Positions 3,212-16,552 of a DNA stretch of 24,000 nucleotides are shown here, one piece after another. The DNA comes from Fretibacterium sp. (GTDB lineage Bacteria > Synergistota > Synergistia > Synergistales > Aminobacteriaceae). Where the stretch lies: NCBI GenBank assembly GCA_024695065.1, contig JAILIX010000074.1, positions 24,459 through 48,458 on the forward strand, in the 5' to 3' direction. The position numbers and the translations under genes were made by a program. The notes beneath the pieces are model-generated. The model made no database searches. It was not told the DNA's origin and saw nothing but the letters and a program-made list of their open reading frames with translations. The number at the start of each line of letters is the position of its first letter. Positions within the stretch are counted from its first letter, which is position 1.

Positions 3212-4013
3212 TGGGAGCCGTAGGGGATGTCCGGGGCTTTCCCCTGCCCTCCTGACGGGTGAACAGCGCCGTTGCGTGGCCGGTGGTGCGTTCGGAGGGC
3301 CCCCTGATAAAATCGGCGGAGTTGCTGCGTTCCAAAATCTCAGCGCGGGTAAGCCCCAGACGCTTCATCAGCATCAGGAAGAGCCGCGCCCCCCTCGGAC
3401 AGTCAATGTCCGCATCGTTCAGCGCCGCAAGGCGGAAATTTTGAATCTGTTCAAGGCTCCGGGCGTCCTCGGCATCAGATTGCTCCCGCGGCTTGTAGTG
3501 GGATAAATCCATGCTGAGAAGGACAAGGCTGTCCCCGTCCCGCAGCAGTTCCTCCAGAGCCTGGCACATGCGCAAAACCTGCAGATCCGTTGCGGAGGAC
3601 CTGACGATGATGGACAGGACGGACGTCCCGGGAAAGAATTTTGCGATACGTGGAATATGCTCTGTGATGCAGTGGTCGCGGCGGGCAACCTCGTCCTGGC
3701 GGAAAAGACCAGCAGCCTTCGCGCCCTCAGCGTCCCCGCGAAGAAGGTTTTCCCTGCCCCAGTCCGACGCGCCGGCGACGATGTTCCGCTTCGCCCGGTG
3801 GAAATGGTCCGGCCCAATGACGATAACGCGCCGGGGGCGCGGATTTATGGATTGGATACGGGCATAGAGACGATCAATCAGGGCTCCGGCCACACCGTGA
3901 TGCGGCGTCAGGGCTCCCACCACCCCGCCGCAGCAGGGCAGGGCGAAAAAGAAAAGGGCGGCGGCAAGCGCCGCCGTCCTCATCCTGAACAGACTACTGA
4001 TACAGTTTCTCAT
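3198..4013 (-). CDS. Memo-like protein (AmmeMemoRadiSam protein B family) with hydrophobic signal-like N-terminus
   Basis: Memo-family motif positions are present: 'TPHHGVAG' (PHAGY-like), 'VIVIGPDHF', 'DHCITEHIPRIAKFFP' (EHS..PFL-like), 'LLSMDLSHY' and 'NSADF....TTGHATALF'. The start may instead be the ATG at 3983 (MRTAALAAALFFFALPCCGG). The 3' end overlaps mpg convergently by 14 nt. Confidence 0.7.
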   Translation of the reverse strand: MRNCISSLFRMRTAALAAALFFFALPCCGGVVGALTPHHGVAGALIDRLYARIQSINPRPRRVIVIGPDHFHRAKRNIVAGASDWGRENLLRGDAEGAKAAGLFRQDEVARRDHCITEHIPRIAKFFPGTSVLSIIVRSSATDLQVLRMCQALEELLRDGDSLVLLSMDLSHYKPREQSDAEDARSLEQIQNFRLAALNDADIDCPRGARLFLMLMKRLGLTRAEILERSNSADFIRGPSERTTGHATALFTRQEGRGKPRTSPTAPINAD

Positions 4014-6468
4014 TCCAGGCAGGCAGGAACTCCGTCAGGTCCTCTCCGCCGTAAACCTTTGCCTTCCACTCATCATCGTTCATACGGCGTTCCAGCATGG
4101 GGCCGACGAAGGTGTAGTAGGAGTACATGAAGCCCTCCGTCACGCGGAAGCCGCCGGACTTGTCGTTGACATAGACGTGGATTTTGCGCGGCGCGCCTGT
4201 GGCCATGTAGAGAACGCTTCCCTTCTCAGCATCCGTGGCTACGTCTGCCACCAGCGCCATTTTGAGCATATTCTGCCCCGTTTCGCCCATCACTTCATAG
4301 ATGTCCTCCGGCAGCACGGACGGCAGTTTGAAGTTCAAAACGGTCTGGAAATCATCGTAGGTCATCGTGTCATCCCTGGCCCGGCCGGCGATGCCGGACA
4401 GGGTCTCCATGCTCTCGGCAAACTCCGTCAGTCTGGTGCGGTAGTGCTCCTCAACGTATTCGTTCTCGTCGGGCAGAAGCGGCTTCAGTGTCTTCGCCAG
4501 ATCGCGGGCCACTGACGCCAGGGCGTCGAACAGCTCCGGCACAGGCTCAACATACCCGCGCGGGATGGGAAGTTCAAAGGGGCCTGCCACCAGTGTGCCG
4601 CCGCCCTCGCCCATCTCCGCGCCGCTCTGCTCCGCGTAGAGGATGGTGTCGTGCTTGAGTTCCGTCATGTTTGCCTCGGCTGTCATCAGTTTCTTGTAAC
4701 TCCAGGCCGGCGTGCCTGCGAAGAACTGACTGGAACCCTTTGACGCAAAATACGTTCTCAGGGCCGACAGAATGGATGTGTAGACATTCGCCCCGTCGTC
4801 GGCCCCGGACCAGGAAGGCCACATCCCGATGAGCTTCTTCTGGTTGTCCTCGTAGCTCTTAAAACTGCTGTACTGTTTGACCTCGTCCTGGGCGGGCTTT
4901 GAGCCCAGCACGGCCATCACGTCCAGCGGGTCCGGCAGGGTGCGGTTCTGCGTGGCCGGATGCGTGAGCGTGTGGAAAATGAACGCGTCAAAGGTTACGC
5001 GCCGGGGCAGAAGGGCGAATTTCTTGCCGGCGAGCTTCTGAATGACACTGCCCTTCCCGGCCTTGTCCAGTGCCTCCATCAGGGCCTTCACCCTGTCCGG
5101 CTTGCCAAGATCCGCAAGCTTGAAGGGCCTGAGCGCCTTTGACAGCGCCTCGGGAGAGTTGACGTTGGAACCGCCTACGAGCGTTGTGATGGGGTCGTAG
5201 AGCGCGCGCCAGCGTTTCTGCACCGCCGGAGCGGTGAGGAGCTTGTTGAGGATGAGCGTCGCCGCCGCGCCGGTCTCACTGTCCAGAGGCCAGCCTGTTC
5301 CCAGCAGGTATGTCGCACGGAAGTAGGCCTTCAGGTCGTCGTTCAGCGTGTAGTGTCCCCTGGGCCCGAAGAGACTGAAGTCCTGAGGCAGTTCCGTGAA
5401 GGGGTTGGCCCCCGCGCCTTCGCCGCTCATAACGCCCTGGGCGAAGTCCTGAACGTCCCCGGGAAGCTCCGAGCCGCCGTTCGTGATGAGGTGCAGAGCC
5501 AGAGCCAGGAATCCGGACACCTTTCCTCTGGCCTTTTTTTCCAGTTCCGAGGCGGGCTTGGGCTGTTTCTTCAGTGCGTCTCTCATGGCTGTTACCAGGT
5601 CCGCTGTACGTGAGACCAGAGCCTTCTCCTCGACCTTCTGAAGCGCGCGGTCAAAGTACAGATGAAGGGCGTGAAGCGGCAGGTCCGCCGTGATGAACTT
5701 CGGCGTGTGTATATTCATGTCCCCATAGAGGTCCACCATGTCGTCCTCACGCAGAAATTCCGGGATAATGGGGGAGGGGGCGACATAAAAGCCATTTTTC
5801 AGCAGGAACTTTTTCACATCGCCGTCGACGGAGTCAGGCAGGTTCTCCTCCTCCACCCGGGAGAGCTCCGGCTTCGATGCGGCCAGATCCCGCAGATCCG
5901 CTTCCGGCAGCCACGCACACCGGCGGTCTGATCCTGCGAAGTCCGCATCCACACCCTCCGGCCTCTCGTCAGAAGAGAAATTTGTGCTGAAGACACAGAG
6001 AATCCACGAGGCGCCGTCTGCCTCGGCCCGGCCCTCTGCCATGACAACGGCGCCGCGGGGCAGGGTGAATTTGGAGTAATCCGACACGGGGCACTTTCCC
6101 GGCAGAAGATGGGGAATCAGTCCCTCTGTCAGGACCTGAAATGGCCGGGCCTCCAACGCCTTATACTTCGGCATGGGGGTCAGCAGCGCAAGCTCGACGA
6201 GACCATTGACGCCCTCTCCCTCCAGGGAAAGCCAGCCCTTCCTCTTTGCCGGTGCGCCCTCCACAACGTCGCCATAGGCCAGTGCGGAGCACTCCATCTC
6301 CTCCGGAATCACCACCCAGCCGCCCTCAGGGGCCGCCTTGGTTTTTGAGAAATCCTCAAAAATGGGGGCCAGCCGTCCGGTGACAACGTACTTCTGCGCT
6401 GCCGCCGCCGTTCCGCAAAGAGCGAGGAGAAGCAGCCCCGCTGCCACAATGCCTGACAACCTTTTCAT
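3994..6468 (-). CDS. Large exported protein, DUF3160-like
   Basis: I prefer the ATG at 6468 (MKRLSGIVAAGLLLLALCGTAAAAQ, a signal peptide) with GGAGG 9 nt upstream; the track start at 6513 lacks both. The central region ('KNGFYV', 'PKFITADLPLHALHLYFDRAL', 'FGPRGHYT') matches my memory of DUF3160. The assignment is unverified. Confidence 0.65.
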   Translation of the reverse strand: MKRLSGIVAAGLLLLALCGTAAAAQKYVVTGRLAPIFEDFSKTKAAPEGGWVVIPEEMECSALAYGDVVEGAPAKRKGWLSLEGEGVNGLVELALLTPMPKYKALEARPFQVLTEGLIPHLLPGKCPVSDYSKFTLPRGAVVMAEGRAEADGASWILCVFSTNFSSDERPEGVDADFAGSDRRCAWLPEADLRDLAASKPELSRVEEENLPDSVDGDVKKFLLKNGFYVAPSPIIPEFLREDDMVDLYGDMNIHTPKFITADLPLHALHLYFDRALQKVEEKALVSRTADLVTAMRDALKKQPKPASELEKKARGKVSGFLALALHLITNGGSELPGDVQDFAQGVMSGEGAGANPFTELPQDFSLFGPRGHYTLNDDLKAYFRATYLLGTGWPLDSETGAAATLILNKLLTAPAVQKRWRALYDPITTLVGGSNVNSPEALSKALRPFKLADLGKPDRVKALMEALDKAGKGSVIQKLAGKKFALLPRRVTFDAFIFHTLTHPATQNRTLPDPLDVMAVLGSKPAQDEVKQYSSFKSYEDNQKKLIGMWPSWSGADDGANVYTSILSALRTYFASKGSSQFFAGTPAWSYKKLMTAEANMTELKHDTILYAEQSGAEMGEGGGTLVAGPFELPIPRGYVEPVPELFDALASVARDLAKTLKPLLPDENEYVEEHYRTRLTEFAESMETLSGIAGRARDDTMTYDDFQTVLNFKLPSVLPEDIYEVMGETGQNMLKMALVADVATDAEKGSVLYMATGAPRKIHVYVNDKSGGFRVTEGFMYSYYTFVGPMLERRMNDDEWKAKVYGGEDLTEFLPAWNEKLYQ

Positions 6469-6516
6469 CAGAAAATGCCTCCTTAAATTATGGATAGTTT
6501 CTGGCTTATTCAACGC

Positions 6517-6525
6517 TGATATGAT
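6517..6525 (+). promoter_or_regulatory. Candidate extended -10 element (TGaTATGAT) for the TMEM43-like gene
   Basis: TG-a-TATGAT at 6517-6525 lies in the 110-bp divergent spacer, about 55 nt upstream of the GTG at 6579. No convincing -35 is present. Confidence 0.3.
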
Positions 6526-6578
6526 AACATAAATTGTGTTCGAAGTTCTCAGTAAAAAAATCAGGAGGCGTATTTAAA

Positions 6579-7787
6579 GTGGCGTACACAGAAACAACGA
6601 CGACGGGATGGGGCGAACGTCTTGGCAACTCGATTAAGGGGATTGTCACAGGGCTCGTCCTCATCGTGGTGGGAACAGTGCTGCTGTGGTGGAACGAGGG
6701 CAGGACGTTCAAGACCGCCGGGGCCATCGGCGAGGCGCAGATGCTGGCCGAGGATGTGGCGGATATCAGCAAAGCAGACCCGGCGCTTTCAGGCAAGGTT
6801 ATCCATGCCACAGGCCATGCGGACACGAAGGACGTGCTGCGCGATCCTATTTTTGGCATTGAGACGACGGCTATCCGGCTGGAGCGCGAGGTGGAGTACT
6901 ATCAGTGGGAGGAGGAATCCCAATCTGAGACGCGCAAGAAGCTGGGCGGCGGTGAGGAGACCGTTACGACCTATACCTACAAGCAGGACTGGAACTCCAG
7001 CCCCATCGACTCCGGTTCCTTCCACGATCCGAGATATCGGGGCGTCAACACTGTTTTAGCCAACATTGAGGATGAATCGCAGTGGGCTCCCCATGTCACC
7101 TTTGGGGCTTACACGCTGCCGGACAGCCTGAAGCACAGCATCAGCGGAGCCATGCCCATGACCCTCACGAGCGTGGATGCCGTGGCCGTCACGGGGACCT
7201 TCAACATCACTCCCGACAACGACTCATGGCGCCTCTACTACGGCAACGTCTCTGCGGACAAACTGATTCATGTGTCCGGCAGTACGGTTTACCTGGGCCG
7301 TGAGCCGGGCAGCCCGAAGGTCGGGGATGTGCGCATCACATTCAAGCAGGTCCCGCCGGCGGATGTCTCCATTATCGCCAGAGTCATCCGGGATACCTTT
7401 GAGCCCTACATTGCCACCAATGGCTACACCTTCATCCGTCTGGACATGGGGACGGTGAGCAAGGAACAGATGTTTGCGGACGCGAAGAGCGGCAATAACT
7501 TCATGGCCTGGGTTCTTCGCCTTATTGGTCTCCTTGTTGTCGCCGCAGGCATCGGTGCGGTGCTCTCTCCGCTGTCTGTGCTGGCTGACGTCATCCCGCT
7601 GCTGGGAGACATTGTGGGGGCGGGCGTGAGCCTCGTTGCTTTCCTGCTGGGCCTGGCGTGGTCCTGCATCGTTATCGCCGTGGCATGGGTGCGGTTCCGG
7701 CCCATTGTGGCGGGGTGCCTGCTGGCGGCGGCGGCTGTGCTGATCGGCTTCCTGTTCCTGAAGGGCCGCAGAAAGACGGCGCAGTAG
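6579..7787 (+). CDS. TMEM43/DUF1625-family membrane protein
   Basis: Matches are 'GWGERLGNSIKG', an N-terminal TM followed by 'WWNEGR', 'EREVEYYQWEEE', and a C-terminal cluster of hydrophobic helices. I prefer the GTG at 6579 (M/VAYTETTT), which has AGGAGG 10 nt upstream and is in frame with the track start at 6534. Confidence 0.8.
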   Translation: MAYTETTTTGWGERLGNSIKGIVTGLVLIVVGTVLLWWNEGRTFKTAGAIGEAQMLAEDVADISKADPALSGKVIHATGHADTKDVLRDPIFGIETTAIRLEREVEYYQWEEESQSETRKKLGGGEETVTTYTYKQDWNSSPIDSGSFHDPRYRGVNTVLANIEDESQWAPHVTFGAYTLPDSLKHSISGAMPMTLTSVDAVAVTGTFNITPDNDSWRLYYGNVSADKLIHVSGSTVYLGREPGSPKVGDVRITFKQVPPADVSIIARVIRDTFEPYIATNGYTFIRLDMGTVSKEQMFADAKSGNNFMAWVLRLIGLLVVAAGIGAVLSPLSVLADVIPLLGDIVGAGVSLVAFLLGLAWSCIVIAVAWVRFRPIVAGCLLAAAAVLIGFLFLKGRRKTAQ

Positions 7788-7857
7788 CAGGGAAAATAAA
7801 CAATGGGGCTCAGGAACATGGGCCCCGTTTACTCAACTAAAGGGGGGTAATATCGCA

Positions 7858-8478
7858 ATGAAAAAGCTTTTCACCTATGTGCCCTGTAAGGTCGTTGCAG
7901 CATTGGCCATGCTGCTGGCGGTTATGTCGGCGGGGTGTGCCTCGGCAGATCCCAAGATTTCTTTCACAGTCTACCAGTGCTTGGCCTGCGATAAGCTGTT
8001 CCAGAGCTTCCCCGGTGACCAGCTTGAAAGAAAAGAGTTCAGGAAGGGTGATGAGCAGCTTAAACGCGTGTTCCAGTTCGGCAACAGGGGGAAAAACTTT
8101 CCTCCGTGCAGAAAGTTTAAGTATCATATCTTCGAGAAAAAGGGAACGAACTCCACAGGCCTGAGCACTCTGAGCAAATCCAGCATGGCTGAGAACGTTG
8201 CGGTTGTGCGGGACGGCGGTTCTCTCAGCGGGATTACCCTGACGGAATGGGAGTGTGTGTACTGCAAAAAACATTTCTACTCCCTGAATAACGAGAACCT
8301 CAACATCCGGGACTGGGAACGTCAGAGGAGCTATCTCTTCAACCTGAAGGGGCGTCCCATCCCCGAGTGCTCAGCCAGAGATGTCTGGGGGCATATCTTC
8401 TATCCCAAAAAGACGTCGTCTGTGAAGTCCTACGAACTGGCTGTCATCGTCAACGACCTCTACTGGGTCAAGAACTGA
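7858..8478 (+). CDS. Exported protein, paralogue A, with two CxxC...C-x6-H modules (unknown family)
   Basis: Signal or lipoprotein-like N-terminus 'ALAMLLAVMSAGC'. Modules are 'YQCLACDKLF...PPCRKFKYHIF' and 'WECVYCKKHF...PECSARDVWGHIF'. It is clearly paralogous to the next ORF. Confidence 0.75.
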   Translation: MKKLFTYVPCKVVAALAMLLAVMSAGCASADPKISFTVYQCLACDKLFQSFPGDQLERKEFRKGDEQLKRVFQFGNRGKNFPPCRKFKYHIFEKKGTNSTGLSTLSKSSMAENVAVVRDGGSLSGITLTEWECVYCKKHFYSLNNENLNIRDWERQRSYLFNLKGRPIPECSARDVWGHIFYPKKTSSVKSYELAVIVNDLYWVKN

Positions 8479-8497
8479 GCGGAAAGGGGATAGTGAC

Positions 8498-9115
8498 ATG
8501 AGAAAGTTTTTCACGCTCTTTTCATGCGCTGTGTTGGGGGTTTTGATGGCGGGAGCGGCCGCTTTTGCGGATGCCAAGATCCCCATCGTGCAGTATCAGT
8601 GTCTGGTCTGCGACAAGTATTTCTATGGATTTGACGGCGACCCGCTGGACTCTGAGGAGCTCAACGACCCCGATGTCCAGCTCAAACGGGTCTTTCAGCT
8701 CGAAAACCGCGGCAAGAATCTGGATCCCTGCCGCGGCGATTTCAAGGCTCATGTGTTTGACAGGATTGCTGTTTCGTCCAGGCCTGTGAGCGAAGTTGTC
8801 AGGAATATGTCACGAATCGCCGTGCTCAAGGATGGCCCCAAACTGAGGGGGGTTACCATTTCGGAATGGTCGTGCATGGCCCCGGACTGCCTTAAGTCCA
8901 ATATGTTCACACTGAACGACGATAACCTGATGATCACAGACTGGGAGCAGCAGACCGACAAGATATTCAACCTGAAGGGCGAGAAGATCTCCAAATGCAA
9001 GTCGCGCTATATCCCCGGGCACGCTTTCTGGCGCAATCTGTCGAAAAAGTCTTCCCCTGTGACATCCTACGAGATTGCCCAGCGCATCTATGATATCTAC
9101 TATGTCAAGAGGTAA
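8498..9115 (+). CDS. Exported protein, paralogue B, with two Cx2-4C...C-x7-H modules (unknown family)
   Basis: Signal peptide 'VLGVLMAGAAAFA/DA'. Modules are 'YQCLVCDKYF...DPCRGDFKAHVF' and 'WSCMAPDCLKSNMF...SKCKSRYIPGHAF'. It is collinear with paralogue A along its whole length (e.g. QLKRVFQ, ENRGKN, DWE.Q, FNLKG, SYE). Confidence 0.75.
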   Translation: MRKFFTLFSCAVLGVLMAGAAAFADAKIPIVQYQCLVCDKYFYGFDGDPLDSEELNDPDVQLKRVFQLENRGKNLDPCRGDFKAHVFDRIAVSSRPVSEVVRNMSRIAVLKDGPKLRGVTISEWSCMAPDCLKSNMFTLNDDNLMITDWEQQTDKIFNLKGEKISKCKSRYIPGHAFWRNLSKKSSPVTSYEIAQRIYDIYYVKR

Positions 9116-9127
9116 GGAGGAAACGCG

Positions 9128-9883
9128 ATGAAAAAGATCAGCATTCGCAAAGCCGTCGCTGCCGTCCTGCTGGTGCTTCTGGGCTGCTCCGCGGCGTGGG
9201 CCCGACTGCCCAGAACCTACAGGGAGTTCAAGGCGCGCTACAAGACCGAGGCCAAAACACTGGAGGGGGCGGTGAAGCTGTACTTTGAGGGCGTGTTCGC
9301 CTTCATCAACCCGGATACCCGGGCCGAGGCAGGGAAGATGCTGCGCTACGTCCTGCACTACAGCATGCCTGTCGAAAAGTCCAGGGACCTCGCGACGTTT
9401 GTTGAGCGGATGAAGGACCCGGATTACAACTTCTGTTTCCGAAGCTACGCTGAGGGCGCGGAGCCTGGAAACGACTATAAGATGAATCCTGACAACTTCA
9501 GTGTTCGCTTTGACGGCAAGCCCATTAGAGACCCCGGCGGCTACCTTCGGGTCCCTCTGAGGAGTTCCGGGGCTGACAGCGCGCGCATTATCTGGGTGAA
9601 GAAGTTTGAAGACGGACTGTGGTACGTCATCAACAACGCATCCACCTATGTACAGGTGCGCGAACCGAAGACGGAGATGATACGCCGCAGCCACGCCCAC
9701 GACGCGGACTATGATGAGCCGGAACCGGAACCGGAGCCTGAACCGGAACCAAAGCTGGAACCTGAACCGAAACTGGACCCCGAACAGCCGCAGAACGGCG
9801 GAGAGTCCGGCTCGCAGAGCGGGGTTCCTGCCGCGGAGAAGCCGGTGAATGTCCCGGAGCCGGAACCGGTGCCGTGGGATTAG
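9128..9883 (+). CDS. Putative lipoprotein with C-terminal (EP)n / EPK low-complexity tail
   Basis: TAAGGAGG RBS. Lipobox 'LLVLLG|CSA'. A globular region of about 190 aa is followed by 'DEPEPEPEPEPEPKLEPEPKLDPEQP...VPEPEPVPWD'. Confidence 0.75.
   Translation: MKKISIRKAVAAVLLVLLGCSAAWARLPRTYREFKARYKTEAKTLEGAVKLYFEGVFAFINPDTRAEAGKMLRYVLHYSMPVEKSRDLATFVERMKDPDYNFCFRSYAEGAEPGNDYKMNPDNFSVRFDGKPIRDPGGYLRVPLRSSGADSARIIWVKKFEDGLWYVINNASTYVQVREPKTEMIRRSHAHDADYDEPEPEPEPEPEPKLEPEPKLDPEQPQNGGESGSQSGVPAAEKPVNVPEPEPVPWD
9716..9790 (+). repeat. Tandem GAR-CCN hexanucleotide repeat encoding (EP)6-KL-(EP)2-KL-DPEQP
   Basis: Read directly: gagccg gaaccg gaaccg gagcct gaaccg gaacca aagctg gaacct gaaccg aaactg gacccc gaacagccg. 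Confidence 0.9.
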
Positions 9884-9920
9884 GTTGGGATTAGGTATGG
9901 ATAAGCGGGGAGGAAGGGTC

Positions 9921-10646
9921 ATGAGAAAGTTTTTAGCGCTGCTGTCAGTTGCACTTCTGGCGTTTCCTGCGATGGCCGCGACGCCGAAGGTGTGGTACGA
10001 CACGGATGGGGTGAACGTGTGGCGGGGGGAAAAAAATGGCCGGGAGATGACCGATATTGAGCCGAATAAGGTTTTCGGCTCAGATTACTGCTGGTTCGTG
10101 GCGGACTCAGCGGTGTGGCTCTCCAACCTCGGAGATAATGAGGCCGCGCCCATCTGGATCCCCCTCAAAAAGGGCGAAATCTGCCAGGAAATTGAGATGG
10201 ATCCGGAGCAAACCCTTGTGTTTCTGTGCCTGACCACCAAAAAAACTGAGACGATTGCGATTTTTGACCTTGAAGGCAATCGCCTGGCGGAAACGCCGGG
10301 GGTTATGGGCATGGGCGGCTACACCCTTGAGTGGATAGACCCATACCGCTGTCTGTTCACCTACAGTGTGCCGGGCACGCAGCGGGGCAAAAGGTCCGGG
10401 CTTTGGCGCGGGGCCGCGGTGATGGAGCTGTTCGGCAAGGGCGGTGAGGACTTTGAGATTTTAGTGACGCCTGTGGCGGAGCCTACAGCTACAGAGAATT
10501 ACCGTGCGTTTGGCGTTGCCGGAGATGAGTGTGTCGTCATCAAATACACGGTCAAGTCCCCCAAAGAGTGGGAGCAACTGGATGACGGCGCTGAGGAGGC
10601 GGGACAATCCGAGGAGATCCGCATCCCGGTCCCGGCTGCGGGTTAA
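9921..10646 (+). CDS. Exported hypothetical protein
   Basis: The ATG at 9921 follows GGAGGAAGGG and gives 'MRKFLALLSVALLAFPAMA/ATP', a signal peptide. The track start at 9849 overlaps the preceding gene and encodes an Arg-rich non-signal leader. I recognise no family. Confidence 0.65.
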   Translation: MRKFLALLSVALLAFPAMAATPKVWYDTDGVNVWRGEKNGREMTDIEPNKVFGSDYCWFVADSAVWLSNLGDNEAAPIWIPLKKGEICQEIEMDPEQTLVFLCLTTKKTETIAIFDLEGNRLAETPGVMGMGGYTLEWIDPYRCLFTYSVPGTQRGKRSGLWRGAAVMELFGKGGEDFEILVTPVAEPTATENYRAFGVAGDECVVIKYTVKSPKEWEQLDDGAEEAGQSEEIRIPVPAAG

Positions 10647-10664
10647 GCCTCACGAGGCGTATCC

Positions 10665-11135
10665 ATGAGACGCTTTATAATTGCAGTGATGGCGTTGGCT
10701 TTGAGTATTGGGACCGCATTTGCGGACATTCCGGATCCCTCCATCTTCAGCCGCCGGGACCCTGCGGATTTGCCGGAGGTCAAAGCAACGGCGTCCATGA
10801 AAGTGGAACCGGTGAAGGAGCAGAAGAATATTTTGCGACTCAGGCTGACCATGACAGGGGCGGGGCATTACACCTTCTCCGTCAGAGAGGAAGCCGGAGA
10901 GCACGCTGTATGTTCCGGTCAGGGTGACAGTGAAGAGCCCGGCAAAGAGCTGGAGGCGCTGTTTCCCCACAGAGAGATCAGCGGAGACATGAAGGCCCGG
11001 TATATTGCGGAGGCGACATTTGTTCCTCTGAACAGTCCCGGATCTGTGCAGGTTATCCGGCAGGTCCTTGCTGTGTGTCTCATCAATGGCTCCATTGCCG
11101 TTACTGAGGAACTGGATGCGCCGGAGATTATTTGA
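10665..11135 (+). CDS. Small exported hypothetical protein
   Basis: Signal peptide 'MRRFIIAVMALALSIGTAFA/DIP'. It lies 18 nt after the preceding stop. I recognise no family. Confidence 0.6.
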   Translation: MRRFIIAVMALALSIGTAFADIPDPSIFSRRDPADLPEVKATASMKVEPVKEQKNILRLRLTMTGAGHYTFSVREEAGEHAVCSGQGDSEEPGKELEALFPHREISGDMKARYIAEATFVPLNSPGSVQVIRQVLAVCLINGSIAVTEELDAPEII

Positions 11136-11147
11136 CGGAAAACCCTG

Positions 11148-12155
11148 ATGCTCATTCTGTGTACGCTGCTGCATCTGGCCGTTGACGGCGTATGCGGGGC
11201 GGCTCTGGCGGCCTACGCTGTGGAGGAGCCGGATTATGCCAGTATTGTTTATTACTTTCATCTTTACAGCCTGATCGCTTTCGGGTTTCAGTGGATTGCC
11301 GGCTGGGCTCTGGACAGAAAGATGAGCCGGATTTTGCCCGGGCTCGCTCTCGTTCCCATTTTGCTGGGGCTGGGAGCGCTGCCCGGTTTTGGTATTCTCT
11401 CTCAATCCGTTCTCCTGGGTGCTGGGAACTGCCTCTTTCACGTGGCGGCTGGAATACTGGTTCTGCGGCGTTATCCCGGCTACAGGGAGCCCGGTGTTTT
11501 TGTCTCCGGCGGCGCGATTGGCCTTGGACTGGGGCTCAGCCGGTTTTGCGGAACGGCGGTCTTCCTGTGCATCTGTGCCGCGGCGACGGCGGTTCTGCTT
11601 TTCCGCGGGATAAGCAGCAGCTTAAAGATTGAGGCAGCAGAAATACACGATCATGAAACAGAAACGTTCCGCGCTGCGCCGTGGATTTCGGCGGGGGCGG
11701 CGGTGCTGCTCCTCCTCTGTGTCACCCTGCGGGGCTTCAGCGGGGGCAGCGGCGCTTCATGCCACGTGATGTTTTTCCCCTGTGTGTTTGCCGCCGGCAA
11801 GGCGTTGGGCGGCGTCTGCTGTGACGCGATAGGCTGGCGCAGAACGACAGCGTTTATCTTCATTCTGAGCTTTGCAGCGCTGGAAATGATGTCTCTGTCA
11901 TTGTCTGCGGCATGGACGTGGCTCCCTGCCGCGCTGCTTGCTTTCGCGTCCAACATGACTATGCCTCTGACGCTGCGCCTGCTCCATGGATGTTGTCTGG
12001 CCTGTCCGGGGCTGATGTTCGGACTTGCGGCGGGGTGTCTGCTTCCAGGGACGTTCTGGCGTGAGTCATTTTCGATTTTGCCTCAGGGGATGATTGTGAT
12101 TCAATTCCTGAGCCTGTTCCTGGCCGGATCGGCTGTCCGGCGTACTGAGGCGTAG
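11148..12155 (+). CDS. Cys-rich polytopic membrane protein (unknown family)
   Basis: The product is almost entirely hydrophobic segments, roughly 9-10 helices by eye. It has 15 Cys in 335 aa, including 'GGVCCD' and 'HGCCLAC'. It starts 12 nt after the preceding stop with a weak RBS. Confidence 0.6.
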   Translation: MLILCTLLHLAVDGVCGAALAAYAVEEPDYASIVYYFHLYSLIAFGFQWIAGWALDRKMSRILPGLALVPILLGLGALPGFGILSQSVLLGAGNCLFHVAAGILVLRRYPGYREPGVFVSGGAIGLGLGLSRFCGTAVFLCICAAATAVLLFRGISSSLKIEAAEIHDHETETFRAAPWISAGAAVLLLLCVTLRGFSGGSGASCHVMFFPCVFAAGKALGGVCCDAIGWRRTTAFIFILSFAALEMMSLSLSAAWTWLPAALLAFASNMTMPLTLRLLHGCCLACPGLMFGLAAGCLLPGTFWRESFSILPQGMIVIQFLSLFLAGSAVRRTEA

Positions 12156-12162
12156 AAGCACA

Positions 12163-12510
12163 GTGGAGACGGCGCGTTGGAGTACAGCCCTGCTCACAGC
12201 AGCAATTGAGACGCCCCTGTTTTATCTGTTCGGATGCCGCCAGGTTGGGGACTGTCTCTGGTTCGCCCTGATCAATGTCATGAGCAATCTTCTGCTGAAC
12301 GATACGCTGCGGGTGGCTCCCCTTGAATCTTGCTTCTGGGGAATCCTGCTGTCGGGTGAGTTGGTGGCTGTCGTTCTGGAATTCGCCCTGTGCCGCTGCC
12401 TCCTGTCTTCCGTCCGGTGTTCCGGCGGCGGAAAACTTTTTCTTGTGGTCCTGAGTACCAATCTTGCCAGTTTCCTTTGCGGGGTCATTTGGGGGCTCTT
12501 ATTGACCTGA
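12163..12510 (+). CDS. Small membrane protein (unknown family)
   Basis: GTG start 7 nt after the preceding stop. Three to four hydrophobic segments and 7 Cys in 115 aa. Confidence 0.45.
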   Translation: METARWSTALLTAAIETPLFYLFGCRQVGDCLWFALINVMSNLLLNDTLRVAPLESCFWGILLSGELVAVVLEFALCRCLLSSVRCSGGGKLFLVVLSTNLASFLCGVIWGLLLT

Positions 12511-12539
12511 CGGGGGTTGAACATTTGTGCAAATGGGTG

Positions 12540-12568
12540 TGGATATCTCTGAACTTTAGGTGTATAAT
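12540..12568 (+). promoter_or_regulatory. Candidate sigma70-type promoter for the mgl operon
   Basis: TGGATA (12540-12545), a 17-nt spacer, then a perfect TATAAT (12563-12568), about 125 nt upstream of the mglB start. Confidence 0.4.
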
Positions 12569-12694
12569 CAAAAAGTCTTTTGTGTATATTCAATTTTTGG
12601 GAAGCAAGCTGTCGCTGGAGGCTTATGCTGTTGAGTCCCTGTGCGGCGGTGAGAGCCCCCGAAGGGGGAAAATCATAATGTGGGAGGTTTTATT

Positions 12695-13705
12695 GTGAAG
12701 CGTGTATTTGCATTGGCGGCAGTTCTGGCGGTTGTGTTTGCGGGAGCGGCACTGGCGACGGAGGTCTATGTGGGGTCGTGCATTTACAAGTTTGACGACA
12801 CCTTTATGACCGGTGTCCGCAACGCCATGAAGGCGGAGATGGACGCTCAGGGAGGCACGCTGGAGATCGTGGATTCCCAGAGCCGTCAGCCCCTTCAGAA
12901 CGATCAGGTAGATACCTATATTACGAAGGGCGCGAACGCACTCATCGTCAACCCGGTGGACCGCACGGCATCCCTTCCCCTGATGGAGAAGGCCAAGGCC
13001 GAGGGGATTCCTATCATCTTCATCAACCGTGAGCCCGACCCTGAGGTCATGAAAGCCTACGACAAGGTCTGGTACGACGGCGCGAAGGCTGAGGAGTCCG
13101 GAACTCAGTCCGGTGAGATTATCGCGGACTACTTCAAGGCGAATCCCGGCGCGGACAAGAACAAGGACGGCAAGATTCAGTACATCATGCTCCGCGGCGA
13201 GCAGGGACACCAGGACGCCGTTCTCCGCACGGAGTACTCCGTCAAGGCCCTCAAGGCCGCCGGCTTTGGTCTGGTGGAGCTGGGCAGCGACACCGCCAAC
13301 TGGGACAAGGTGCAGGCCACCGATAAGATGAAGGGCTTCATCTCCGCCGCCGGCATCGAGAACATTGAGGCCGTTCTGGCAAACAATGATGACATGGCTC
13401 TGGGCGCCATCGAGGCCCTGAAGGCTGAGGGCTACAACACGGGCGATCCCGCGAAGTTCATCCCCGTCGTCGGCGTTGACGCCACTGCCCCTGCCCTTGA
13501 AGCCATGAAGGACGGCTCCCTGCTGGGCACCGTGCTGAACGACGCAGACAACCAGGGCCGCGCCGCTGTGCGCGTTGCTGTGGCTGCCGCTGAGGGCAAG
13601 CCCGTCACCAGGGAGACTGTGGGCTATGAGATTACCGACGGCAAGTACGTCTGGGTCCCCTATCAGAAGGTGACGAAGGAGAACTATCAGCAGTTCATGA
13701 AATAG
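12695..13705 (+). CDS. mglB: Galactose/glucose ABC transporter periplasmic binding protein
   Basis: I prefer the GTG at 12695 (MKRVFALAAVLAVVFAGAALA, a signal peptide) with GGGAGG 7 nt upstream. The mature protein is MglB-like: 'IYKFDDTFM..VR', 'ALIVNPVD', 'IPIIFINREP', 'ANNDDMALGAIEALKA'. Confidence 0.9.
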   Translation: MKRVFALAAVLAVVFAGAALATEVYVGSCIYKFDDTFMTGVRNAMKAEMDAQGGTLEIVDSQSRQPLQNDQVDTYITKGANALIVNPVDRTASLPLMEKAKAEGIPIIFINREPDPEVMKAYDKVWYDGAKAEESGTQSGEIIADYFKANPGADKNKDGKIQYIMLRGEQGHQDAVLRTEYSVKALKAAGFGLVELGSDTANWDKVQATDKMKGFISAAGIENIEAVLANNDDMALGAIEALKAEGYNTGDPAKFIPVVGVDATAPALEAMKDGSLLGTVLNDADNQGRAAVRVAVAAAEGKPVTRETVGYEITDGKYVWVPYQKVTKENYQQFMK

Positions 13706-13718
13706 CCTCGCGGACATT

Positions 13719-13749
13719 CCCCCCGGCCTCCGAGGCTGGGGGGCTTTTT
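13719..13749 (+). terminator. Intrinsic terminator/attenuator between mglB and mglA
   Basis: CCCCCCGGCC-tccga-GGCTGGGGGG forms a 10-bp stem with one G-U pair, followed by CTTTTTG. It starts 14 nt after the mglB stop. Confidence 0.8.
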
Positions 13750-13770
13750 GCATTATGAAGGGAGGATAAG

Positions 13771-15306
13771 ATGAGCGAGTACGTCCTTGAAATGCGCAAT
13801 ATCACAAAGACCTTCCCTGGTGTGAAGGCTTTGGACAACGTTCAGCTCAAGGTGCGGCCGGGGACCGTCCATGCCCTGATGGGGGAGAACGGGGCCGGTA
13901 AATCTACGCTGATGAAGTGTCTTTTTGGGATTTACCGCCAGGACAGCGGCGAGGTTTTACTGGACGGCAATCCTGTTAAGATTAACTCCGCGCGCGAGGC
14001 TATGGATAATGGCATAGCCATGATTCACCAGGAACTTCACCCCATACGCTTCCGTTCCGTCATGGAGAACGTCTGGCTGGGGCGTTTTCCCGGCTTGATG
14101 GGCGTCGTGGACCACAAGGCCATGTACGACAAGACGAAGGAGCTCTTTGAAGATCTGGGGCTTTCTGTGGATCCTCTGGCGCTGGCCGGGGAACAGTCCG
14201 CGGCTATCCTTCAGATGATGGAGATTGCCCGCGCCGTCAGCATCAACGCAAAAATAATCATCATGGACGAGCCCACGTCGTCGCTGTCCGACCGCGAGGT
14301 GGACTTCCTCTTCAGGATTATCAGCCGCCTCCGCGAAGAGGGCCGTGCCATCATTTACATTTCGCACAAGATGAAGGAGATTCTGCAGATTGCCGATGAG
14401 GTGTCCATCATGCGCGATGGACAGTACGTCGGCACGTGGCCGGCCCTGGGCCTGACCACAGAGGAGATCATCAGGCAGATGGTGGGCCGGGAAATGACCA
14501 ATCAGTTCCCCCCGCGCACTGGTGCTCCGTCCGATGAAATCGTTCTGAGCGTGCGGAACCTTTCCTCGCCGCTGAAGAAATCCTTCCAGGATGTGTCCTT
14601 TGACCTGCGCAAGGGCGAAATCCTGGGGATTGGCGGACTGGTGGGGGCTCAGAGGACAGAGTTTGTCGAGGCGCTGTTCGGCCTGCGCAGCATTGAGTCC
14701 GGTGCTGTCACCAAGGATGGAAAAGCGTACAGGGCCCGGTCCCCCCGGGATGCCAAGGCCCACGGCTTTGCCCTTCTCACGGAGGAGCGCCGCGCCACAG
14801 GCATTTTCGGCATTCTCCCCATTCTGGAGAACACGGTCATTGCCAACCAGAAGAATTATGCCCGTATGGGCGTGCTGGACGAGCGCAGACGCGTGAGGGA
14901 GGCCGATGCGGGCTGCAAGGGGCTGAACGTCAAGACCCCGTCGCTTAATACCCTCATACAGGACCTTTCCGGCGGCAACCAGCAAAAGGTCCTTATAGCC
15001 CGGTGGCTGCTGACGAACTCTGACATCCTCATCCTCGACGAGCCTACCCGTGGAATTGATGTCGGTGCAAAATATGAAATCTACAACATCATGCTCCAGC
15101 AGGTCAATCAGGGCAAGTCCATCATCATGATTTCCTCGGAAATGCCGGAGCTGATGGGTATGTCCGACCGTATTGTGGTGATGTGTGAGGGCCGCGTGAC
15201 GGGTATCCTGGAGAAAGGGCAGTACAGCCAGGAGGAGATCATGCGCCTGGCTACAATGTTTGCCGGCCCCCGCAAGAATGCGGAAGACCACCCGGCGGCG
15301 GACTGA
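13771..15306 (+). CDS. mglA: Galactose/methyl-galactoside ABC transporter ATP-binding protein (duplicated ABC domains)
   Basis: Walker A 'GENGAGKST', signature-like 'LSGGNQQK', Walker B 'ILILDEPT'. The 511-aa length and position after mglB fit. GGGAGG RBS. Confidence 0.92.
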   Translation: MSEYVLEMRNITKTFPGVKALDNVQLKVRPGTVHALMGENGAGKSTLMKCLFGIYRQDSGEVLLDGNPVKINSAREAMDNGIAMIHQELHPIRFRSVMENVWLGRFPGLMGVVDHKAMYDKTKELFEDLGLSVDPLALAGEQSAAILQMMEIARAVSINAKIIIMDEPTSSLSDREVDFLFRIISRLREEGRAIIYISHKMKEILQIADEVSIMRDGQYVGTWPALGLTTEEIIRQMVGREMTNQFPPRTGAPSDEIVLSVRNLSSPLKKSFQDVSFDLRKGEILGIGGLVGAQRTEFVEALFGLRSIESGAVTKDGKAYRARSPRDAKAHGFALLTEERRATGIFGILPILENTVIANQKNYARMGVLDERRRVREADAGCKGLNVKTPSLNTLIQDLSGGNQQKVLIARWLLTNSDILILDEPTRGIDVGAKYEIYNIMLQQVNQGKSIIMISSEMPELMGMSDRIVVMCEGRVTGILEKGQYSQEEIMRLATMFAGPRKNAEDHPAAD

Positions 15307-15325
15307 ATAAAGGAGGACTCAATCA

Positions 15326-16552
15326 ATGGCGGAGAAACATATTGCGCGTTCCAAGTACGACCGCTTCTTCTTCATTGCGGGCCTGGCTGTTCTGGTGCTG
15401 GGTGTCGTGCTCAAACTGTGTCAGTCAATGCCAGCTTTCCGGCGTATCTACGATCTGCCGGTCTTCCTGATGCTCATCGGCGCCGTGACAGCTCTGAAGG
15501 GCTTCCTTGCCTTCTCAAAACACCATGAGGGCACAGTCGTCCTTTCCCGCAAAACCTTCGGCGCGTTCCTGACCAACAACGCTATTCTGCTGGCTATGCT
15601 GGTTCTGGTTGTCATTATCTGCATCCTTCAGCCCCGATTCATGCAGATCCGCGTGGCGCTGGACATTCTGACGCAGTCCTCGACGCGTCTCATCATCGCA
15701 CTGGGTATCTGCTTCACGCTTCTGATTGCGGGCACGGACCTGTCGGCAGGCCGCATGGTGGGCTTCGCGGCGGTGATCTCCGCCTCCATGATGCAGACTG
15801 CAACCTACTCCAACCGCTTCTTCCCGGACCTGCCCCAGATTGGCGTCTGGATTCCCATCATCGCGGCTATCGCGGCGTGCATGGTCTTTGGCGCGCTCAA
15901 TGGATTCCTCGTCGCCAAGTATGACATGCACCCCTTTATTGCCACACTGGCCGTCCAGGTCATCATCTATGGAACCTGCTCGCTGTACTTTGACATGCCG
16001 CCCAACAACTCCCAGCCCATCGGCGGTGTCCGGCCCGAATTCGCGGCGCTGGGCCAGATGAGAATTTTTGCCGGCAACGGGTTCCAGGGTATCTCAATCC
16101 TCATTCCCATTGCCGTGGTCATCTGCGTTATCATCTGGTTCATCCTGAACAAGACCGTGTTCGGTAAGAACGTCTACGCCATCGGCGGCAACCGGGAGGC
16201 GGCGGTGGTGGCAGGAATCAACGTGTTTGCCTGCATCATGTGCATCTTCATCCTGGCCTCGTGCCTGTACGGCATTGCGGGCGTTCTGGAGGCGGCACGC
16301 ACGGCAGGAGCCACCAACAACTACGGCAACGGCTATGAGCTGGACGCCATCGCGGCGTGCGTGGTGGGCGGCGTCTCACTGAATGGCGGCATCGGCAAGG
16401 TCAGCGGCATCGTCAGCGGTGTGCTCATCTTCACCGTCATCCAGTATGGCCTGCAGTTCATCAACGTGTCTCCCATGTGGCAGCAGGTCATCAAGGGCGT
16501 CATCATTGCCGTGGCGGTCGCCATTGACCTGACAAAGTACCGCAGGAAATAG
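15326..16552 (+). CDS. mglC: Galactoside ABC transporter permease (MglC/RbsC family) with an N-terminal extension
   Basis: AAGGAGG RBS. The core shows 'TDLSAGR', 'HPFIATLA' and 'AIGGNREAA..AGI', typical of the monosaccharide ABC permease family. The product is 408 aa versus 336 aa in E. coli MglC. Confidence 0.88.
   Translation: MAEKHIARSKYDRFFFIAGLAVLVLGVVLKLCQSMPAFRRIYDLPVFLMLIGAVTALKGFLAFSKHHEGTVVLSRKTFGAFLTNNAILLAMLVLVVIICILQPRFMQIRVALDILTQSSTRLIIALGICFTLLIAGTDLSAGRMVGFAAVISASMMQTATYSNRFFPDLPQIGVWIPIIAAIAACMVFGALNGFLVAKYDMHPFIATLAVQVIIYGTCSLYFDMPPNNSQPIGGVRPEFAALGQMRIFAGNGFQGISILIPIAVVICVIIWFILNKTVFGKNVYAIGGNREAAVVAGINVFACIMCIFILASCLYGIAGVLEAARTAGATNNYGNGYELDAIAACVVGGVSLNGGIGKVSGIVSGVLIFTVIQYGLQFINVSPMWQQVIKGVIIAVAVAIDLTKYRRK

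Follow-up and report, generated by a model that had tools for sequence, protein, structure and literature searches.

The window analysed here is a 24,000-nt stretch of DNA from a metagenome-assembled genome (MAG) of Fretibacterium sp. (Synergistota). It holds eight genes, numbered 1 to 8 along the + strand (6579-12510), which the original prediction for this DNA had described as one unit headed by gene 1, a homologue of TMEM43. We found all eight open reading frames (ORFs) on the + strand, and both their coordinates and the spacers between them (70, 19, 12, 37, 18, 12 and 7 nt, in order) were reproduced. Hydropathy revealed N-terminal signal-peptide-like segments in the products of genes 2-6 and multiple hydrophobic segments in those of genes 1, 7 and 8, which are multi-pass membrane proteins. 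The description of every product as carrying a signal peptide or lipobox, or as polytopic, was therefore upheld as far as the segments go, although the lipobox Cys of gene 4 is not conserved in its orthologues. Exact matches to the proteins were present among NCBI entries named 'hypothetical protein'. The run is flanked upstream by a divergent DUF3160 gene and downstream by an mglBAC-like ATP-binding cassette (ABC) transporter and galK. The features of the region are listed below, with loci and contigs of other genomes referred to by L numbers.

3994-6513, - strand: DUF3160 secreted protein, the divergent neighbour of TMEM43, outside the cluster (PF11369, E 4e-120)
6579-7787, + strand: gene 1, TMEM43/LUMA (DUF1625) homologue (PF07787, E 3e-74)
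7802-7829, + strand: GC-rich terminator-like hairpin with a weak U tract (folding energy; kept in relatives)
7858-8478, + strand: gene 2 (CxxC-A), secreted protein with two C-x2-C...C...H repeats (alignment, AlphaFold2 (AF2) model, internal repeat)
8498-9115, + strand: gene 3 (CxxC-B), anciently duplicated counterpart of gene 2 (the two are 43% identical)
9128-9883, + strand: gene 4, secreted DUF6935 protein with an (EP)n tail (PF22043, E 4e-35)
9896-9904, + strand: imperfect 9-nt direct repeat, left-hand copy, GTATGGATA (seen when the junction is aligned to L015 and L017)
9921-10646, + strand: gene 5, secreted protein outside the families searched (orthologue in Fretibacterium Tb.RUG.11)
10665-11135, + strand: gene 6, fast-evolving secreted protein (relatives upstream of gene 7 homologues)
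11148-12155, + strand: gene 7, compact 335-aa, 12-helix protein of the major facilitator superfamily (MFS) fold (AF2, Foldseek, motif A)
12163-12510, + strand: gene 8, small multi-pass membrane protein (adjoins gene 7 homologues)
12538-12546, + strand: right copy of the 9-nt repeat, GTGTGGATA (junction alignment; overlaps the -35-like hexamer of mglB)
12540-12568, + strand: mglB promoter-like site (region conserved in L015 and L017)

Scans of all products against Pfam, NCBIfam, PADLOC and PHROG recognised only TMEM43, DUF6935 and DUF3160, and Rfam gave zero matches within the window. A promoter and terminator scan of the window remained at background level, and no internal promoters or terminators were predicted in the cluster. 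An eight-gene same-strand run is not in itself unusual.

Synteny of the eight genes in related genomes

Genes 2-4 (7858-9883), encoding CxxC-A, CxxC-B and the DUF6935 protein, are referred to here as the trio. A scan for the CxxC proteins across one genome per GTDB species yielded 15 loci, all in Fretibacterium, Synergistaceae or Synergistales MAGs and most of them titled as rumen (goat, sheep, reindeer). Among L001-L028, the trio was present in every locus with enough flank. In more than ten rumen Synergistaceae contexts, among them the nine loci L001, L004, L007, L008, L010, L019, L022, L024 and L026, it stands between different flanks, with neither TMEM43 nor genes 6-8 beside it. Five contexts are independent of one another (L001-L003, L004-L006, L007, L008 and L010), and their flanks are PFK/Rnf, a histidine phosphatase, a pseudouridine synthase, a flavoprotein reductase and FTHFS. 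The trio of other species is preceded by its own TATAAT-type promoter-like sequence and a strong ribosome-binding site (RBS), as read directly from the sequences. A shared operator upstream of the trio across species was also considered and rejected, only generic promoter-like and RBS elements being seen.

When the window proteins were searched against the trio loci by tblastn, the order of genes 2-8 was recovered only in Fretibacterium Tb.RUG.11 (L023/L029), where the right flank differs. The complete eight-gene order is likewise confined to Fretibacterium (the window and Tb.RUG.11) and is broken in the MAG RUI518 and in all other Synergistaceae. Besides the window, TMEM43 adjoins the trio only in the Fretibacterium contigs L015, L017 and L029. 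Homologues of the individual proteins are scattered and do not keep the eight-gene synteny, and in the trio loci outside Fretibacterium TMEM43 is not adjacent.

The identification of gene 1 as a TMEM43/DUF1625 homologue in the original prediction was correct. Gene 1 matches PF07787 with 250 bits (cut-off 23.3) over model positions 1-250 of 250, and its hydrophobic segments (15-40, then a cluster at 307-397) fit an N-terminal transmembrane helix (TM), a large extracytoplasmic domain and C-terminal TMs. Like TMEM43/LUMA, gene 1 covers the full Pfam model, and it differs in that its link to the downstream genes is confined to the genus Fretibacterium. The divergent DUF3160/TMEM43 pair (window 3994-7787) also occurs in Tb.RUG.11 (L029 906-4707), at 79% and 75% identity. 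Homologues of LUMA in bacteria have been noted before (PMC3198171). The literature searched for DUF6935, DUF1625 and DUF3160 contained no functional data on their bacterial members. The hairpin at 7802-7829, in the spacer from the TMEM43 stop to the gene 2 start, has a minimum free energy of -23.2 kcal/mol and a z of -3.6. Equivalent hairpins are found in L015 (about 245-278), L017 and L029, where the stem is kept despite sequence changes. The consensus terminator scan did not call this hairpin because its T run is short; its role may lie in termination or in mRNA stability.

The closest relative, RUI518 (L015, L017), carries TMEM43, the trio, about 150 nt and then mglB; the segment equivalent to 9921-12510 is missing. 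The DUF6935 stop is joined straight to the mglB promoter region (L015 2297-2446; window 9884-9920 and 12511-12679). The trio of L015 is 93-95% identical to that of the window, and a second, more divergent version lies on L017. Contigs L015 and L017 (2669 and 2652 bp, both of RUI518) have identical break points and CxxC-A proteins that are 93% and 68% identical, respectively, to that of the window; the pair suggests either co-binning of two strains or species or a bubble in the assembly. The edges of the gene 5-8 block in the window are marked by the 9-nt imperfect direct repeat, of which L015 and L017 carry a single copy; by our own estimate the chance expectation of such a repeat is about 0.17, making it weak evidence. 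Genes 5-8 are a presence/absence polymorphism within Fretibacterium. Gene 5 itself has an orthologue at 49% identity in Tb.RUG.11 (L023), and no family match was found for it in Pfam, NCBIfam or a PDB sequence search.

This polymorphism, together with base composition, could point to recent acquisition of the cluster, or part of it, as a genomic island. Genes 2 and 3 have 52% GC against a window mean of 58.5%, and the GC content at third codon positions (GC3) of genes 6-8 (0.62-0.66) is at the low end of the window. The original prediction had likewise suspected a distinct composition from spot counts, and the counts themselves were confirmed (50.8% GC at 7981-8100 and 68.3% at 13201-13260). 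At the level of whole genes, the GC3 check showed no real difference. GC3 is 0.70-0.71 in genes 2 and 3 and 0.70-0.75 in genes 2-4, inside the range of the other 14 window genes (0.73 +/- 0.05), and the GC deficit of genes 2 and 3 lies in codon positions 1 and 2. A deficit at these positions with normal GC3 reflects amino-acid composition, not foreign codon usage. The low GC3 of genes 6-8 is equalled by two unrelated window genes, and a convincing compositional island is absent. No integrase, transposase or phage matches were found with Pfam, PADLOC or PHROG, and the PADLOC and PHROG scans gave no defence match for any window product. Neither a plasmid tblastn with genes 7 and 4 nor a scan of viral contigs with profiles for CxxC and DUF6935 detected relatives, and nothing points to a phage, plasmid or defence origin. 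The 9-nt repeat is short enough to have arisen by chance and a deletion in RUI518 explains the indel equally well. We regard recent acquisition as improbable.

The same comparisons bear on the view that the eight genes form one operon for a single TMEM43-headed envelope complex engaged in metal or thiol/redox chemistry. This view would account for the common strand, the spacers of 7-70 nt, the lack of predicted internal promoters and terminators, the envelope nature of every product and the return of the full order in Tb.RUG.11. It is nonetheless quite unlikely, given that at least nine other contexts have the trio but neither TMEM43 nor genes 6-8, that genes 5-8 are absent from RUI518 beside an almost identical trio, that genes 7-8 are found without the trio in other phyla and that a conserved hairpin follows TMEM43. 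Of the envelope complex proposed at the outset, the envelope location stands and metal binding is plausible, whereas the single complex is not supported: synteny separates TMEM43, the trio and a gene 6-7-8 module.

The CxxC proteins and their DUF6935 neighbour

Genes 2 and 3 had been described as two paralogues bearing four CxxC...C...H modules in total, and this agrees with what we found. The proteins are 43% identical, and each consists of two homologous beta/alpha halves of ~85 aa (hhalign probability 95.6%, E 1e-8) with aligned Cys/His positions. Every half bears the C-x2-C...C...H pattern, except that the second knuckle of gene 3 is C-x4-C. In an alignment of 35 representatives, extending down to 17% identity, columns C41, C44, D54, H90, C133, C136, C171 and H179 are invariant and C84 is nearly so. 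The AF2 model of gene 2 (mean predicted local distance difference test score (pLDDT) 85.5) places each CxxC in a beta-hairpin and not at the N-terminus of a helix; strands E33-41 and E47-50 lie on either side of the CxxC. No significant Foldseek match to this model was found in PDB or BFVD, the best TM-scores being 0.16-0.21 (0.16 for the 'fingers' of USP), and a search of PDB sequences with the CxxC-family profile gave no usable match. Families above threshold were not found for genes 2 and 3 in Pfam, NCBIfam, PADLOC or PHROG. Sub-threshold Pfam zinc-knuckle matches (zf-C2H2_jaz, zf-H2C2_2 and Zn_ribbon_10) recur across CxxC members and cover the knuckle only; the best Pfam score for genes 2 and 3 is 14.4 bits against a cut-off of 22.6, and Pfam scans of distant members likewise gave sub-threshold matches only.

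The resemblance of these modules to zinc knuckles, ribbons and C2H2 modules lies in the C-x2-C within a beta-hairpin and in two further invariant ligands, a Cys and a His. In contrast to those modules, the proteins are secreted to the periplasm, the ligands are of the C2-C-H type with ~40 residues from the knuckle to the Cys/His, and the module is a tandem ~85-aa beta/alpha domain with neither a fold match in PDB or BFVD nor a Pfam family. A classical C2H2 finger was rejected, as the Pfam scores are below threshold and the ligands are C, C, C and H with the Cys/His ~40 residues downstream. A haem c site or c-type cytochrome was also rejected: there is no CxxCH, and the motifs CLACD and CVYCK have no following His. 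Metal binding is a plausible function of the CxxC...C...H modules and, judged from sequence, their best reading.

Alternatively, the CxxC proteins could be periplasmic thiol-disulfide oxidoreductases or disulfide-stabilised proteins in which the CxxC is not a metal site. CxxC is the classical redox motif and the proteins are exported, yet matches to the thioredoxin, DsbA and Redoxin families of Pfam were not found, and the predicted beta-hairpin knuckle has no thioredoxin-fold match in PDB. A third Cys, invariant or nearly so, and an invariant His accompany each CxxC, as in C3H metal sites, and one of the gene 3 knuckles reads C-x4-C. In a strict anaerobe such as this host, conditions in the periplasm are not expected to favour disulfides. 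A thioredoxin-fold oxidoreductase was accordingly rejected for genes 2 and 3, the CxxC lying between strands, and the redox alternative as a whole seems unlikely to us. The thiol/redox idea of the original prediction is supported indirectly at best, and for the gene 7 module alone, through the CcdA-thioredoxin fusions beside gene 7 homologues elsewhere (below); in the CxxC proteins no thioredoxin fold is seen.

The A-x-A↓DP cleavage pattern (arrow, cleavage site) is conserved in gene 2 orthologues. Reading of the gene 2 and gene 3 signal peptides revealed no twin-arginine motif, and export by the Sec route was therefore assumed for the CxxC proteins. The possibility that gene 2 is a lipoprotein was rejected, its Cys not being conserved in orthologues. 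In L004, L007 and L010 the orthology holds A-to-A and B-to-B, with B-type proteins closer to gene 3 than A-type proteins are (57-62% vs 40-44%). The two types can hardly be told apart in L001 and L008, at about 40% each.

The family is narrowly distributed. Homologues of gene 2 formed only 35 clusters in a search of 5.8 billion proteins, the named ones being all Synergistaceae. A profile search of 1.84 billion proteins (representatives at 50% identity) returned 49 at E<=1e-3, among them a divergent CxxC subfamily of 210-225 aa in which only a Synergistaceae MAG and one Desulfovibrio are named. The latter (Desulfovibrio sp. OttesenSCG-928-O18, L030 1115-8631) is the sole named CxxC member outside Synergistaceae and belongs to a same-strand run that is at least nine genes long. 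The products of this run have mostly signal-peptide-like N-termini, and Pfam domains are absent from them save for a sub-threshold SH3_3 (24.1 bits, cut-off 27). In two further distant loci the CxxC genes lie downstream of a LemA gene: L033 (3658-5678) holds two tandem CxxC paralogues, and L032 (3251-7356) a CxxC gene between a secreted inosine-uridine nucleoside hydrolase and a 5'-nucleotidase.

The surroundings of the L032 gene would suit a trio that binds or scavenges nucleic acids or nucleotides in the periplasm by means of zinc-finger-like modules, as would the weak, sub-threshold similarity to C2H2/JAZ-type knuckles. This context occurs at one locus only and the other contexts are unrelated to it, while the Pfam matches are far below threshold and limited to the knuckle. 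We therefore consider such a device very improbable, more so than any other explanation weighed here, and retain metal binding as the preferred reading of the modules.

Gene 4, for which the original prediction had recognised no function or family, is a member of DUF6935. It matches PF22043 end to end (121.7 bits, cut-off 27; model 2-158 of 158), and precomputed DUF6935 calls are present on its orthologues. Of the three trio proteins it is the best conserved (59-70% identity). Wherever the flank is long enough, the DUF6935 gene comes after the CxxC genes, and the distant locus L031 repeats the arrangement with one CxxC gene before its DUF6935 gene. To the known family our data add this link to the CxxC proteins, a conserved SHAHDADYD motif and a variable acidic tail. 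The motif, with its invariant H-D-x-D-x-D core, ends the DUF6935 domain (window 9680-9710, gene 4 residues about 186-196); it occurs twice in the L031 protein. The acidic/proline tail that follows ranges from none (L008) to the (EP)n of the window. Gene 4 had been called a lipoprotein with an (EP)n tail, and of this the tail is present. At the lipobox position the window has LLGC, while orthologues have LLIC, SLLC, SLFC, LLFC or no Cys (L001, L031), and all orthologues share the pattern A-x-A↓[KRE]LPKTY, which fits signal peptidase I. Nothing usable was found when genes 4 and 5 as single sequences, or the DUF6935 profile, were searched against PDB sequences. Together, these comparisons define the CxxC family by two C3H ligand sets and link it to DUF6935.

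Gene 7 and its partners

The product of gene 7 had been noted as a polytopic membrane protein with 15 Cys, which is correct, and no transporter had been recognised in the cluster. The AF2 model of gene 7, built with 34 homologues, has a pLDDT of 89.2, a predicted template modelling score (pTM) of 0.88 and 6+6 helices. A Foldseek search against PDB gave 169 matches at E<0.001, and the 50 best listed are all MFS transporters (probability 1.0, TM-scores 0.60-0.66). Motif A-like sequences are found in both halves, G52-WAL-D56-R-K in the TM2-3 loop, where the second Gly is missing, and G222-VCC-D226-AI-G229-W-R-R in the TM8-9 loop; G52, D56, G222 and D226 are invariant in the family alignment. On the basis of this model, gene 7 is predicted to be a very divergent, compact transporter of the MFS fold. 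The statement that no transporter could be recognised is thereby overturned, and with gene 1 in TMEM43 and gene 4 in DUF6935, individual proteins of the cluster match unrelated known families.

Besides the motif residues, the family conserves H9, D13, C16, N94, H98, C191, R195, C212, K218, N269, M270, M272 and C297, as well as C225, H280 and C282, and the conserved set holds in both the gene-8-linked and the thioredoxin-linked subsets of homologues. The conserved His, Asp, Cys, Asn and Met residues lie on TM1, 4, 7, 8 and 10. The cavity of MFS transporters is lined by TM1, 4, 7 and 10, and many of the conserved gene 7 residues sit there. Metal binding by gene 7 is plausible. The protein resembles MFS transporters such as 6zgr/6g9x, OxlT (8hpk) and VMAT1/2 in its 12 helices arranged 6+6, its motif A-like loops and its polar residues on cavity-lining helices. 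Unlike them, it has only 335 aa, escapes MFS profiles, conserves an unusual His/Asp/Cys/Met set, has a dedicated small membrane partner (gene 8) and a secreted partner (gene 6), and frequently has a CcdA-thioredoxin neighbour beside its homologues. A search of PDB sequences with the gene 7 profile gave no match. Homologues form at least 262 clusters at about 50% identity, from Selenomonadaceae, Acidaminococcaceae, Synergistaceae and a Deltaproteobacteria-labelled MAG.

The neighbours of gene 7 homologues were examined in 83 loci, of which 80 came from a metagenome scan and the others were L012-L014. Homologues of gene 8 adjoin those of gene 7 as 37 ORFs (12 of 25 clusters at 65% identity); one follows gene 7 in a selenomonad locus and one in another synergist locus (E about 1e-27), and an Acidaminococcaceae locus has gene 7 without gene 8. 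Gene 8 proteins share the pattern IETP...N..SN...N...E..V..EF..C...TN..SF. A role for gene 8 as a CcdA-like dithiol shuttle was rejected, as just one Cys is conserved.

Gene 6 has only five close homologues. Divergent gene-6-like proteins are encoded immediately upstream of gene 7 homologues (29 ORFs, about 25 of the 83 loci), and at 14-69% identity to gene 6 their sole invariant residue is Asp21 (10725-10727), at the predicted mature N-terminus. The cleavage context is A-x-A↓D-[IVL]-P-x-P, often followed by RPRP stretches. A Cys/His ligand in the gene-6-like proteins was ruled out, none being conserved even among close homologues. Pfam gave sub-threshold matches only for gene-6-like proteins and a gene 8 homologue, and the gene 6 profile found nothing usable among PDB sequences. 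In the Synergistaceae locus L013 (3376-6004), five tandem, highly divergent gene-6-like paralogues lie directly upstream of a gene 7/8 pair, and one of them has an SDDKP-rich repeat insert. This array suggests rapid diversification of the periplasmic partner.

In 21 of the 83 loci, the gene immediately downstream of the gene 7 homologue encodes a fusion of DsbD_TM with thioredoxin/redoxin (CcdA-thioredoxin, or D; for example L014 7040-8290 and L054 5589-6911), which is not present in the window. The architectures seen in metagenomes are 7-8, 6-7-8, 6-7-D and 7-D, and rarely 6-7-8-D. The fusion is found mostly in loci without a gene 8 homologue, and gene 8 and D stand together in only three loci. 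The DsbD_TM-Redoxin fusions beside gene 7 homologues resemble CcdA/DsbD-TM and TlpA-like thioredoxin systems; unlike such systems, no component of the window has a thioredoxin fold. Downstream of the gene 7/8 pair, both the window (mglB-like, 12680-16552) and L013 (Bmp-type, 7351-12153) have a CUT2-type ABC importer, and a similar ABC ATPase lies downstream in nine loci. This association is probably lineage synteny.

A reading of the region as three modules

What the comparisons and models show is modularity, a restricted distribution of the gene sets, the fold of gene 7 and the invariant Cys/His ligands. We read the region as a lineage-specific juxtaposition of three independently inherited envelope modules with the functions outlined below, and place the probability of this reading at about 0.6. 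The first module would be TMEM43 (6579-7787), paired divergently with DUF3160 and followed by the terminator-like hairpin. The second would be the trio, whose four C3H sites may bind structural Zn2+ in the periplasm and in which a heteromer of A and B may work with the DUF6935 protein as a periplasmic binding or scaffold complex. The third would comprise genes 6-8 (10665-12510). Here gene 7, with conserved His, Asp, Cys, Asn, Arg and Met on its predicted cavity helices, may move a thiophilic substrate, such as a soft metal or a sulfur compound, paired with the small membrane protein gene 8 and the fast-evolving periplasmic gene 6. In other genomes the CcdA-thioredoxin fusion might, to judge from its adjacency to gene 7, supply periplasmic reducing power. 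Gene 5, absent from RUI518 along with the third module, would be an accessory secreted protein.

Several observations weigh against this reading. The TMEM43-trio adjacency is kept in all three Fretibacterium genomes seen. Co-transcription of genes 2-8 here would fit the spacing of 7-37 nt and the scan, which called no internal promoter or terminator, and a lineage-specific functional link between these genes may exist in this genome. The module boundary at gene 5 is fuzzy, as a weak homologue of its N-terminal part lies behind the trio in just two loci, L008 and L020 (30% identity at E about 1e-9 to 1e-10). The distant CxxC genes in L030, L032 and L033 have no adjacent DUF6935 gene. Gene 7 has no match to any Pfam or NCBIfam MFS profile, even at E<=1. 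The CcdA-thioredoxin link falls inside one large sequence cluster, and its adjacency to gene 7 may be lineage synteny. Co-transcription of genes 2-8, if real, would be a local arrangement and not evidence for a common machine.

A bolder and rather doubtful possibility, to which we give more credit than to any of the alternatives discussed above, is that the region holds two undescribed systems, namely a periplasmic complex, restricted to gut Synergistaceae, of the two paralogous tandem C3H proteins with DUF6935, and a minimal, Cys/His/Met-lined MFS transporter, widespread in gut anaerobes, with its partners. The former would then be a new secreted metal-binding fold with a dedicated function, for example the capture of a ligand or of nucleic acid. 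The latter would be a new type of MFS-based transporter for soft metals or thiol compounds, acting with gene 8 and/or CcdA-thioredoxin and a periplasmic partner.

More generally, close spacing of hypothetical envelope genes on one strand does not amount to evidence for a single system, and comparative synteny breaks up this eight-gene cluster inside a single genus. DUF6935 gains its first genomic partner, the narrowly distributed CxxC family. The gene 7 family is common in rumen and gut Negativicutes and Synergistota; it is missed entirely by current profile libraries and is therefore presumably annotated as 'hypothetical' wherever it is present. A testable class of substrates is suggested by the ligand-like residues that this family conserves and by its CcdA-thioredoxin neighbours.

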